From NCBI RefSeq assembly GCF_055900595.2, contig NZ_CM148325.1: a DNA stretch of 64,000 nt; one strand, 5' to 3'. The notes beneath the pieces were generated by a model. It made no database searches, was not told the DNA's origin, and worked only from the letters and a program-made list of their open reading frames with translations. Both the position numbers and the translations under genes were made by a program. Positions 4,301 to 7,271 of the stretch are shown here, piece after piece (position 1 is the stretch's first letter; the number at the start of each line of letters is the position of its first letter).

Positions 4301-5308
4301 CTATCCCAGTAACTCTTCCTTAACATCCATCGCCAGCTCAAACGAATGCAGGCGCGCCTGGTGATCGAAAATCTGCCCGTTAACCATAATCTCATCCGCG
4401 TCGGTTTCGCGCAGGATCGACTGCAAACCATGACGCACTTTCGCTTTATCACCCACCAGCGACATACTCAGCGCCTGCTGCACGCCATACTGCTCAGACG
4501 GTGACCAGAACTGATCCATATTTTGAATCGGTGGCGGCAGTTGCCCGGTTTCACCGCGGCGCAGCTTCACAAAGGCTTGCTGCATCGAGGTAAACAGGAA
4601 TTCGGCGTCGCGGTTGCTGTCGGCGGCGATAATATTGATGCACACCATCGCGTACGGTTTCTCCAGCCGCGCCGACGGTTTGAAGTTACTGCGATAAAGA
4701 TGCAGTGCCTGGAATAGCATATCCGGTGCGAAGTGTGAGGCAAACGCGAACGGCAGACCAAGCTGCGCCGCCAGTTGTGCACTGTAAAGGCTGGAGCCTA
4801 ATAACCACACGGGGATTTTCTCGCCATAGCCCGGTACAGGGCGCACATGCGGATTGGGATCACGGGCGTCAAACCAGTCCACCAGCTCCGCGACATCGCG
4901 GGGGAAATTATCAATATCGCCGCTCATATGGCGACGTAGTGCCATCATGGTTCGCTGGTCACTACCCGGAGCACGGCCCAGCCCCAAATCGATTCGCCCC
5001 GGATAGAGCGTATTGAGCGTACCGAACTGTTCGGCAATCACCAACGGTGAGTGGTTTGGTAACATCACGCCGCCAGACCCCAGATGCAGCGTGGTGGTAT
5101 TTGCCGCCAGATAGCCAATCAATACTGATGTTGCAGCACTGGCAATGCCGGTCATATTGTGGTGTTCCGCCAGCCAGTAGCGATGATAGCCGCGCTTTTC
5201 AGCCAGACGGGCGAGATCGAGAGAGTGGGAGAACGCTTCTCGCGCTGAAGAGCCTTCGGGGATGGGGGCCAGATCGAGTAGCGAAAACGCAATGGTTTTA
5301 TCAGTCAT
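4301..5308 (-). CDS. yhbW: Luciferase-like (LLM class) flavin-dependent monooxygenase, uncharacterised (335 aa)
   Basis: Translation recognised as YhbW; length matches. Confidence 0.9.
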
Positions 5309-5311
5309 AAC

Positions 5312-5382
5312 AGCTCACTTTGTTACCGATTAATCTTTAATACTGCATTAAAGAGTAGTTAAAGTTGTTAACAAAGTGAGCT
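5312..5382. repeat. Nested palindrome occupying the ubiV-yhbW gap
   Basis: Perfect 14-bp inverted repeat agctcactttgtta (5312-5325) / taacaaagtgagct (5369-5382) separated by 43 bp; inner 8-bp inverted repeat tctttaat / attaaaga (5334-5354) with 5-nt loop. Outer arm ends 4 bp from the yhbW start codon. Confidence 0.6.
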
Positions 5383-5388
5383 ATTTGC

Positions 5389-6267
5389 TTAGGCTTGCAG
5401 TTCCAGCCCAGCCAGCCGTCTCCAGTAGCCGTTACAGTCGCTGTTTGCCGTCAACGGGAGTGGTGCAGCGCCATTTTCATTAGCGCGGAAGGCGTCGAGC
5501 ATAGCGAAAGTGTCAGTACCCTGCGGTGACAGGCGGACCACATCAACCAGCCCCTGCATGGATGCCAGCTCGTTACCGAGGTTGTACACGTAGCCGCTCA
5601 TGGTCTGAATGCCATTGAGCACAAACACTTGTTGGTTTTCCTGCGACAGCACGTTGCGCCCGTTCGGATACTTAATGCAGCAGGTTTCACACTCATCTTT
5701 TGGGCGGTCTTCCGAACGCGCGGTAAAGCAGCGGGCGGAGTAGGCCAGCGGCAGATGACCGTAGCTCAAGACTTCCACTTCAAACTGGTTGCGAATGCCC
5801 AGCTCATCGCACTGATTAAGCAGATTCACCAGCCAGTCGCGGGAAAGTTCCACCGGCATACACCAGCGCATCATGCCCTGTTTGAGTAATATTTTCAGCG
5901 TCACCGCGTTGTAGCAGTTCAGCGCGTGTCCGGCGACGAACGGCAGTTTGCGCTCAGCGCACATATTCACCACGCCAAGATCGCTGGCTTCAATCAGAAA
6001 CTCACCGTTCTCAACATAGCGTTTCAGTTCGCCCAGTTCGGAGGATGCCTGCACCAGCGCCAGCGTGGAGAGCACAATCTGCTTGCCACTTCCGGCGAGC
6101 GATTTTGCCATCTCCAGCCAGTCGCCAACTTTGGTTGCCCGGCGTTTGCTACAGACCGCTTCACCGAGATAAATCACGTCTGCGCTGCTGGCGGCGGCCT
6201 GCTGATAAAAATCTTCCAGCGTCTCTTTTGGCCAGTACCACAGCACCGGCCCTAAGGAATATTTCAT
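5389..6267 (-). CDS. ubiV: U32-family protein UbiV (O2-independent ubiquinone biosynthesis; 292 aa)
   Basis: Translation recognised as YhbV/UbiV; start placed at MKYSLGPVLWYW (6267), overlapping the ubiU 3' end by a few nt. Confidence 0.85.
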   Translation of the reverse strand: MKYSLGPVLWYWPKETLEDFYQQAAASSADVIYLGEAVCSKRRATKVGDWLEMAKSLAGSGKQIVLSTLALVQASSELGELKRYVENGEFLIEASDLGVVNMCAERKLPFVAGHALNCYNAVTLKILLKQGMMRWCMPVELSRDWLVNLLNQCDELGIRNQFEVEVLSYGHLPLAYSARCFTARSEDRPKDECETCCIKYPNGRNVLSQENQQVFVLNGIQTMSGYVYNLGNELASMQGLVDVVRLSPQGTDTFAMLDAFRANENGAAPLPLTANSDCNGYWRRLAGLELQA

Positions 6268-6275
6268 TGCTCTTC

Positions 6276-7271
6276 TCACTGCCATTTACGGTGATACGCG
6301 CCAAGAGTGGTTTGCGTGCCTTCGGACATCGACCCGAGCGTCTCCATCCACGCGCTTTGTGGTACGAAGTTTTGCGGATCGGCCTTACAACGGTCGATAG
6401 CCTGACGCCAGACTTTTGCCACCTGGCTGACATACGCCGGGCTACGCTGGCGGCCTTCAATTTTCACCGAAGCGATATTCGCCGCCATTAACTCCGGCAG
6501 TAGCTCAAGGGTATTGAGACTGGTTGGTTCTTCCAGCGCGTGATAGCGCTCGCCGTCCACCAGATAACGCCCTTTACACAGTGTCGGATAACCTGCGTTT
6601 TCGCCGTCCTGATAACGGTCGATCAGCACTTCGTTCAGGCGAGATTCCAGCCCCTGCGGCGTTTGCTGCCAGCGCACGAAACGGGCCGGAGAACATGCCC
6701 CCACGGTGTTGGGCGACTCACCCGTCAGATACGACGACAGATAGCAACGACCTTCCGACATAATGCACAGACTGCCGAAAGCGAACACTTCCAGCGGTAC
6801 AGGCGTGACCCGCGCCAGTTGTTTCACCTGATGAATCGACAACACGCGCGGCAGCACCACGCGGGCAACGTCAAAATGGCGATGATAAAAGTGAATCGCC
6901 TCTTCATTGGTTGCTGAAGCCTGCACTGACACATGACGTTCAATATGCGGGTATCGCTGGGCGGCGTACTCCAGCATGGCGAGGTCGGCGAGAATCAGCG
7001 CATCGGCACCCAACTGCGCCGCCATATCCACGGCGCGCTGCCAGCGGGCGTAACCGTCCGGATGCGCAAAAGTGTTAATCGCGATGTGAAGTTTGCGGCG
7101 ATGTTGATGGACAAAACTCACCGCTTCCTGCAATTTTTTCTCGGTAAAGTTAAGGCCGGCGAAGTGACGGGCATTGGTATCATCTTTTAGCCCGATATAA
7201 ACAGCATCTGCGCCGTTTTCGATGGCCGCCTTAAGCGCCGGGAGATTTCCGGCAGGGCAGAGCAGCTCCAT
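6276..7271 (-). CDS. ubiU: U32-family protein UbiU (O2-independent ubiquinone biosynthesis; 331 aa)
   Basis: Translation recognised as YhbU/UbiU; start placed at MELLCPAGNL (7271) rather than the ORF-track ATG at 7298. Confidence 0.85.
   Translation of the reverse strand: MELLCPAGNLPALKAAIENGADAVYIGLKDDTNARHFAGLNFTEKKLQEAVSFVHQHRRKLHIAINTFAHPDGYARWQRAVDMAAQLGADALILADLAMLEYAAQRYPHIERHVSVQASATNEEAIHFYHRHFDVARVVLPRVLSIHQVKQLARVTPVPLEVFAFGSLCIMSEGRCYLSSYLTGESPNTVGACSPARFVRWQQTPQGLESRLNEVLIDRYQDGENAGYPTLCKGRYLVDGERYHALEEPTSLNTLELLPELMAANIASVKIEGRQRSPAYVSQVAKVWRQAIDRCKADPQNFVPQSAWMETLGSMSEGTQTTLGAYHRKWQ

Follow-up and report, generated by a model that had tools for sequence, protein, structure and literature searches.

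A conserved inverted repeat between ubiV and yhbW in Enterobacteriaceae: a candidate marbox that may also mask the yhbW ribosome-binding site in read-through RNA

INTRODUCTION

Whether, and by what means, a gene responding to oxidative and xenobiotic stress could lie 80 bp behind an anaerobic operon and escape co-expression with it is the question raised by the ubiV–yhbW gap of Escherichia coli. In the window studied here (the whole 64-kb stretch of DNA analysed, which belongs to a less common lineage of E. coli), ubiU (7298→6276), ubiV (6285→5389) and yhbW (5308→4301) all lie on the minus strand, and an 80-nt gap separates the last two genes (positions from open reading frames; the ubiV annotation is taken from E. 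coli genomes). The minus-strand location of both ubiV and yhbW is a correction to the preliminary description of this locus. The site is widespread in the species, since the 401 nt around it match 5,424 of 5,426 complete genomes, with at least 99% identity in just 12 of them.

Fnr activates the ubiUV operon over the range from microaerobic to anaerobic conditions (PMC10470549). The product of yhbW is annotated as a luciferase-like (flavin-dependent) monooxygenase, and the earlier remark that no regulation had been described for this gene is mistaken, because yhbW is a published member of the MarA/SoxS/Rob/RamA regulon. For example, in Klebsiella pneumoniae yhbW is upregulated in a ramR mutant, and purified RamA has been shown to shift a fragment of its promoter and to activate it 6.9-fold in vitro (PMC4310594). 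In a ramA mutant of Salmonella, yhbW is downregulated 3-fold (PMC3139621). In E. coli treated with vanillin, YhbW was the most strongly induced protein (77-fold), with an increase of about 13-fold in its mRNA; the gene is included in the SoxS regulon list, yet its induction persists in a soxS mutant (PMC6561319). As for MarA, a ChIP-seq study of the ETEC strain H10407 reported a peak “within yhbV” and none at the ubiV–yhbW gap (PMC5684230). A search of published supplements, and by b-number, found no mapped transcription start site for yhbW.

The features of the gap are as follows, in the direction of transcription.

5389..5391, minus strand: ubiV stop codon TAA (open reading frame 5389..6285), with GCAAAT (6 nt) between the stop and the 14-bp distal arm.
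5369..5382 (to 5385 in RNA), minus strand: distal arm AGCUCACUUUGUUA, conserved in 20 taxa; an anti-RBS strand only if the transcript starts upstream.
5365..5384, minus strand, forward with respect to yhbW: marbox-like 20-mer ATAGCTCACTTTGTTAACAA identified with a position weight matrix (PWM), core 15-mer 5381→5367; proposed class II MarA/SoxS/Rob/RamA site.
5331..5357: inner A/T-rich inverted repeat (arms 5331-5341 and 5347-5357), a weak hairpin over the −10 region.
5340..5345, minus strand: predicted −10 hexamer CAGTAT, at a fixed distance of 21 nt from the 15-mer.
5333..5335, minus strand: predicted yhbW start zone, placed from the −10; the 5′ UTR would be about 25-27 nt and without the distal arm.
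5312..5325, extending to 5309, minus strand: proximal arm UAACAAAGUGAGCU, containing the Shine-Dalgarno (SD) sequence AAGUGAG (5320→5314); the part of the arm upstream of it includes UAACAAAG.
5306..5308, minus strand: yhbW start codon (open reading frame 4301..5308); orthologue matches start at residue 1.

THE INVERTED REPEAT AND ITS FOLD

A perfect inverted repeat of 14 bp with a spacing of 43 nt had been noticed in the gap, and this is borne out, the arms being AGCTCACTTTGTTA (5312-5325) and TAACAAAGTGAGCT (5369-5382). The arms extend to 17 nt with 94% complementarity (5309-5325 and 5369-5385), and the lone DNA mismatch becomes a U·G pair in RNA, which gives 17 RNA pairs. Such a structure is exceptional in its surroundings: no other perfect inverted repeat of at least 13 bp with a loop of up to 100 nt occurs in the 64-kb window, and the mean number in 100 dinucleotide shuffles was 0.02. 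The distance from the proximal arm to the ATG is 3 nt (GTT), and not the 4 nt first given. The distal arm includes, in addition, a local palindrome of its own, TTGTTAACAA. RNA folding, one of the checks that the preliminary description proposed, yielded −30.1 kcal/mol for the minus-strand RNA 5400→5290 (z = −4.9), and none of 200 shuffles was as good.

A second hairpin had been described as nested within the first. The inner repeat is indeed present (5331-5341 and 5347-5357), but the hairpin that it would form is weak and inconsistent between species. Its z score is −2.75 in E. coli, lies between −2.2 and −2.8 in five of eight species and is about 0 to −1.2 in the other three; moreover, the RNAalifold consensus of the short-spacer species retains the outer helix only, not the inner hairpin.

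Two familiar kinds of palindrome were considered for this position and rejected. The first is an intrinsic terminator: here an A/U-rich stem closes an interval of 43 nt and leads into GUUAUGACUG, with no U-tract, and a terminator scanner did not call it. The same scan gave no calls over 5100-5700 (in the gap, on neither strand), in the remainder of ubiV or in five orthologous loci. The second is a dispersed repeat or MITE (REP, ERIC), which is discarded because the palindrome is single-copy in E. coli genomes (median of one place per genome). An Rfam search of the gap returned just sub-threshold matches to eukaryotic miRNA precursors, as any hairpin gives, and six orthologous loci had no hits.

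CONSERVATION OF THE PAIRING

Upstream regions of yhbW were gathered in 26 sequences, and the pairing analysis comprised 21 sequences from 20 taxa of Enterobacteriaceae, including Escherichia, Salmonella, Citrobacter, Klebsiella, Kluyvera, Enterobacter, Cronobacter, Franconibacter, Atlantibacter, Buttiauxella, Pluralibacter, Superficieibacter, Mangrovibacter, and Entomohabitans. Both arms are kept in all 20 taxa, with spacers of 43-161 nt. The pairing potential is thus conserved in the orthologous gaps (20 of 20 Enterobacteriaceae taxa), a point on which the preliminary description had staked its case, and the long-range helix is the closing stem of the minimum free energy (MFE) fold in 20 of the 21 sequences. 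Within the 13-bp core, 246 of 260 cells are paired (sum of the per-pair counts), and the 28 variant cells consist of 13 G·U pairs, one compensatory change (GCUCGC/GCGAGC in Mangrovibacter) and 14 breaks. The outermost pair is A-U in five taxa and G-C in four. In the long-spacer species, the helix grows inward by ACAGC/GCUGU past a 1-nt bulge.

Covariation, which had also been suggested as a check, was not significant over the 20 taxa (78.6% of cells paired vs. 79.0% in column shuffles), because both arms are nearly invariant. As read from the alignment, the case for pairing rests on conserved complementarity and not on covariation; and near-invariance of this kind would sooner be expected of sequence-specific recognition than of a helix acting purely as RNA. 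Distal-arm positions that are weakly constrained in MarA sites (0.14-0.6 bits) are 80-100% identical over the 20 taxa, with adjacent spacer positions outside the helix being 35-75% identical; the T at position 3, which departs from the consensus, is frozen as well. Within E. coli, the gap (87 nt) is at least 99% identical, with its aligned length free of mismatches, in 4,428 of 5,423 genomes, unlike the surrounding coding sequence, which differs by 1-5% in nearly all genomes of the species. The freezing of weakly constrained arm positions, and a gap more conserved than its flanks, argue that the complementarity itself has been selected.

A repeat devoid of function, either the relic of an inverted duplication or a chance complementarity between a marbox and a ribosome-binding site (RBS), would agree with the non-significant covariation and with the absence of experimental evidence for an RNA-level role. 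Nevertheless, it is very improbable when only 0.02 such repeats are expected per window, when the repeat is kept over 20 Enterobacteriaceae taxa while neighbouring non-helix positions diverge, and when the gap is far more conserved within E. coli than the coding sequence that flanks it.

The position of the hairpin with respect to both genes bears on another possibility, namely that it is a 3′ end structure of the ubiUV mRNA, serving as a stabiliser or RNase III site and affecting yhbW only secondarily. In 18 of 21 taxa the hairpin starts 2-8 nt past the ubiV stop, and a helix of at least 17 bp plus inner pairs could in principle be a substrate of RNase III; this role would also be compatible with the main model presented below. 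However, with an A/U-rich stem, no U-tract and a silent scanner the structure does not qualify as an intrinsic terminator, the helix persists where REP or ERIC elements have inserted between it and the ubiV stop, and the 3′ arm is locked to the yhbW SD sequence in all 21 sequences, which a mere stabiliser would not need. As the main explanation of the repeat, a ubiUV 3′ structure is consequently held to be improbable.

THE DISTAL ARM AS A CANDIDATE MARBOX

In order to score the arms as binding sites, a marbox PWM was built from 32 published MarA ChIP-seq sites (which themselves score 3.6-20 bits, with a median of 13.2). The 15-mer GCTCACTTTGTTAAC of the distal arm (5381→5367, directed toward yhbW) reaches 8.6 bits, which is the best score in the gap and falls within the top 0.041% of window positions; this value is lower than the median of real sites (13.2), and the RE1 element reads GCTC, with the non-consensus T, instead of GCAC. 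The 15-mer is followed at exactly 21 nt, without indels in the 21 sequences from 20 taxa, by a hexamer CAnTAT (AATACT in two taxa), the first 13 nt or so of the interval being variable. The hexamer behaves like a −10, since its A at −11 and its T at −7 are invariant and its third position is free. The fixed marbox–21 nt–CAnTAT geometry therefore predicts a yhbW start inside the loop, near 5335-5333. An alternative −10 candidate, TTTAAT, is located 8 nt upstream; the start that it would direct is also inside the loop, and the conclusion reached below for the two kinds of transcript is the same.

The centre of the predicted marbox (5374) would stand at −39 to −41 from this predicted start, in forward orientation. 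In Salmonella, class II marboxes have been defined as forward sites located 30-42 bp upstream of the start, at promoters with no −35 element (PMC10268841). By direct reading, the canonical −35 position of yhbW is ACAACT (2/6 matches), in line with the lack of a −35 at class II promoters (PMC10268841). A consensus sigma-70 promoter scan of the gap, ubiV and five orthologous loci made no calls, and the predicted CAGTAT −10 was not called either.

The data available for Klebsiella help to place the promoter. The primers for EMSA and in vitro transcription (PMC4310594, supplement S4) were mapped onto a K. pneumoniae locus (L094), where the RamA-responsive fragment corresponds to L094:1023-1283 (261 bp). 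Only 41 bp of this fragment are upstream of the distal arm, and therefore the RamA-dependent promoter lies within the gap itself. The best marbox in the fragment is the distal arm (8.6 bits), followed by the inverted proximal arm (5.9 bits). Judging from its sequence and that of its orthologues, the distal arm is very probably a protein-binding site, namely a marbox.

A constitutive leader switch would require the promoter to be elsewhere. According to this explanation, transcription starts upstream of the distal arm, the helix is present in every yhbW mRNA and unmasking by an sRNA, a protein, temperature or an RNase is needed. The rpoS leader is a parallel for a switch of this unmasking type. 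The helix is in fact very stable and conserved, a further MarA site exists upstream, inside ubiV, and the induction by vanillin of the YhbW protein (77-fold) vs. that of its mRNA (about 13-fold) leaves room for a post-transcriptional part (PMC6561319). However, the 41 bp upstream of the distal arm in the Klebsiella fragment are too short for a marbox plus a core promoter with a start upstream of this arm, the conserved marbox–21 nt–CAnTAT arrangement places the start in the loop, and no promoter-like signal was found inside ubiV. The leader switch is accordingly regarded as decidedly unlikely.

The marbox inside ubiV deserves a separate description. The ChIP-seq marbox “in yhbV” was considered as a possible match to the palindrome and rejected, as it maps to 6072-6086, about 700 bp upstream of the gap feature and inside ubiV. 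At these positions (plus strand) the window carries GCACAATCTGCTTGC, one base off the ETEC ChIP-seq marbox (PMC5684230), about 760 bp upstream of the yhbW ATG. This site is oriented backward relative to both ubiV and yhbW, and the consensus scan found no promoter-like signal after it.

If the distal arm is a marbox, the proximal arm might be a protein-binding site too. The repeat would then be a DNA-level element in which both arms bind protein, as two inverted marboxes, each for one activator monomer, or as half-sites for a different regulator, and any pairing of the RNA would be incidental. The near-invariance of the arms, the statistical absence of covariation, the local palindrome TTGTTAACAA in the distal arm and the rank of the inverted proximal arm as second-best marbox of the Klebsiella fragment (5.9 bits) all speak for it. 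On the other hand, the arms are 43 to 161 bp apart depending on the taxon, with insertions of unrelated sequence between them; this variable distance also makes the previously suggested dedicated regulator acting on both arms unlikely. In E. coli the proximal arm (opposite strand) scores just 4.2 bits as a marbox, over the RBS and downstream of the predicted start. In addition, the proximal arm varies mostly by A→G or C→U substitutions facing U or G, which are acceptable in RNA and are mismatches in DNA, and the long-spacer species add the lineage-specific inward pairs ACAGC/GCUGU. For these reasons, an element acting purely on DNA through both arms seems unlikely.

THE RIBOSOME-BINDING SITE AND TWO KINDS OF TRANSCRIPT

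As first described, the only SD-like sequence available to yhbW is within the proximal arm (AAGUGAG, 5320→5314), and its pairing with the 3′ end of 16S rRNA amounts to about −5 kcal/mol. The RNA helix ends 1 nt before the AUG and covers this SD. The spacing between the proximal arm and the ATG is 3-4 nt in 20 of the 21 sequences, and 5 nt in Entomohabitans. Providencia and Brenneria retain the motif AACAAAGTGAG of this arm as well, and Erwinia has the near-variant AACAAGTGAG; these three genera are without the distal arm or a strong upstream complement. The preservation of the proximal motif in outgroups that have no distal arm points to a constraint of its own, presumably translation initiation.

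Taken together, these features can be accommodated in a model to which we assign about an even chance of being correct: the transcripts of yhbW itself would be open, and the read-through RNA of ubiUV would be folded and silenced. The palindrome would combine two functional elements, selected to be complementary to each other. In DNA, the distal arm would act as a forward class II marbox for MarA/SoxS/Rob (RamA in other genera), over the −35 position. We infer that yhbW transcription starts at about 5335-5333, between the arms, from the −10 CAGTAT (5345→5340), that read-through from ubiUV exists and that yhbW is translationally silenced in the resulting RNA. As the promoter would be inside the palindrome, the two kinds of transcript would differ in their distal-arm content. 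The own, stress-induced transcripts would carry the proximal arm only and be translatable. The read-through RNA of the Fnr-activated ubiUV operon would contain both arms, because the gap is without a terminator, and the 17-bp helix would then bury the SD and prevent translation of yhbW. In this way the palindrome would insulate a gene of the Mar/Sox/Rob regulon from the anaerobic operon upstream, and the untranslated read-through RNA would perhaps be ended by Rho or trimmed to the hairpin.

The difference between both RNAs was evaluated by modelling read-through RNAs from 40 nt upstream of the distal arm and own RNAs from the predicted start. The predicted own 5′ UTR is 25 nt in E. coli and 25-143 nt across taxa, and does not include the distal arm. 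In 18 of 20 taxa, opening of the window from −14 to +5 costs 12.9-24.4 kcal/mol in the read-through RNA vs. 3.4-9.1 kcal/mol in the own RNA; in Mangrovibacter and Klebsiella sp. BIGb0407 there is little accessibility difference between the two. The proposal that a read-through transcript would have the yhbW initiation region sequestered in a long-range helix is thus supported computationally, both by the closing of the MFE fold by the helix (20/21 sequences) and by the costlier opening of the RBS.

An extension of the model would see the masked read-through RNA as a poised reserve, accumulated under anaerobiosis and later unmasked by RNase III, an sRNA or a protein. We give this idea a small chance. 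If true, it would allow YhbW to be made quickly once oxygen returns or a xenobiotic stress sets in, ahead of the rise in MarA/SoxS/Rob-dependent transcription, and one DNA sequence would combine the roles of activator site, anti-RBS and processing signal.

The helix could alternatively serve translational coupling, by bringing together the ubiV stop and the yhbW start so that terminating ribosomes melt the outer pairs and reinitiate. The distances are suggestive, as only 2-8 nt separate the ubiV stop from the distal arm in 18 of 21 taxa, and 3 nt lie between the proximal arm and the start codon in E. coli. However, 50-130 nt (REP/ERIC) separate the stop from the arm in Salmonella, E. albertii and Klebsiella sp. 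BIGb0407, and such an insert is also present in about one in four E. coli genomes, with the helix kept in all these cases. To judge from known ribosome footprints, the SD-pairing nucleotides would be just past the reach of a ribosome at the ubiV stop. Besides, a luciferase-like monooxygenase presumably needs O2, and its anaerobic co-expression with ubiUV would make little sense. Coupling is, in our estimation, quite improbable.

SEQUENCE VARIATION AROUND THE PALINDROME

Several variations of the neighbouring sequence are described here in their own right. The long-spacer species share a conserved block of 65-100 nt in the predicted yhbW 5′ UTR (K. pneumoniae L094:1112-1190; also in L097, L096, L005, L010, L087, L092 and L093, and in a shorter form in L089). 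It consists, in this order, of CAGCTTT(T)CTGGC, a G+C-rich hairpin whose sequence varies by species while the stem is kept, and GCCAGGCTGGAAGAAGACCTTCAATCTGATGAC. The block is found as a single copy at each locus, nowhere but upstream of yhbW, and is absent from E. coli, Salmonella, Citrobacter, E. hormaechei and Pluralibacter. It had no Rfam hit and, in a check for dispersed repeats, no match in 5,426 E. coli genomes. This block may be an undescribed leader element that was lost in the lineages without it.

Small mobile sequences are frequent at this junction. Roughly a quarter of E. coli genomes carry a 125-bp repeat between the ubiV stop and the distal arm (L002:544-668, strain 2e), which is found at the same site in L003 and L009 (E. 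albertii) and is absent from the window; the adjoining palindrome is intact. The repeat is present at a median of five places per E. coli genome, and its core presumably corresponds to the ERIC/IRU consensus. In Salmonella enterica (L085, about 1020-1110), the stretch from the ubiV stop to the distal arm is taken up by palindromic REP-like units (GCCGGGTGGCGGC... and GCCTGATAAGCGTAGCGCCATCAGGC). The occurrence of small repeats here in several lineages makes the junction look like a preferred landing site. A different event is seen in E. coli strain M19 (L003, about 600-610), where an insertion of the IS110 family splits the proximal arm (...GGTAACAAAG/AGAATGAG..., the slash marking the junction) and replaces the yhbW start; among the sampled rows, M19 is the sole genome with a broken palindrome.

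Some outgroups have ubiV without the distal arm, namely Brenneria (L014, about 1850-1890), Erwinia (L013, about 1850-1885) and Acerihabitans (L015, about 1930-2000). Visual inspection of these outgroups shows a G+C-rich hairpin and then a T-rich stretch after ubiV (in Brenneria, ATGGGCAG–10 nt–CTGCCCAT TTATTTTTCT). The terminator scanner did not call these structures after ubiV in Brenneria and Erwinia, and therefore the replacement of the distal arm by a terminator is not used as evidence. In Acerihabitans, a different local hairpin masks the RBS (duplex of −20 kcal/mol). These structures suggest that the outgroups insulate yhbW by other means, in a sample too small to count as evidence.

COMPARISON WITH KNOWN SYSTEMS

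The predicted yhbW promoter resembles class II promoters such as that of micF in having a forward marbox over the −35 position, with its predicted centre 30-42 bp upstream of the start and no recognisable −35 (PMC10268841, PMC5684230). Unlike them, its RE1 is GCTC and not GCAC, its “n” positions are frozen across genera, and it has no peak in the ETEC MarA ChIP-seq. At the RNA level, a relevant case is the left end of IS200, where a bidirectional terminator acts against transcription from outside and a stem in the element's own mRNA sequesters the SD (PMC4513863). In the yhbW gap, by comparison, the terminator is absent and the stem is predicted in the read-through RNA only.

If the proposed model is correct, two differently regulated units would abut without a terminator, and the same 14-20 bases would be an activator site in DNA and an anti-RBS solely in the RNA of the neighbouring operon. 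The model would also explain how an oxidative and xenobiotic stress gene can be placed 80 bp behind an anaerobic operon without co-expression, and it would provide a concrete promoter model for yhbW.

Masking of a downstream RBS by distant upstream pairing in a polycistronic RNA is known from rpmI–rplT and from the coat–replicase junction of MS2. In these systems the masking strand is inside the translated upstream gene and is opened by ribosomes, whereas that of yhbW is wholly after the stop codon, and, unlike in them, insertions between the stop and the masking arm are tolerated. The logic of the model also matches that of the insertion sequences IS10 and IS50, for which fold-back inhibition of read-through transcripts was reportedly described by Davis, Simons and Kleckner in 1985, Krebs and Reznikoff in 1986, and Schulz and Reznikoff in 1991. 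As in the model for yhbW, one arm is said to lie over the RBS and the element's own promoter between the arms, so that its own mRNA is open and outside transcripts are silenced. The differences are that yhbW is a chromosomal stress gene and not a transposase, and that the model presented here is computational; furthermore, the incoming transcription would be that of a specific, conditional operon, ubiUV, and the upstream arm apparently doubles as an activator site. Were the model right, a principle of insertion sequences would be extended to ordinary chromosomal genes.
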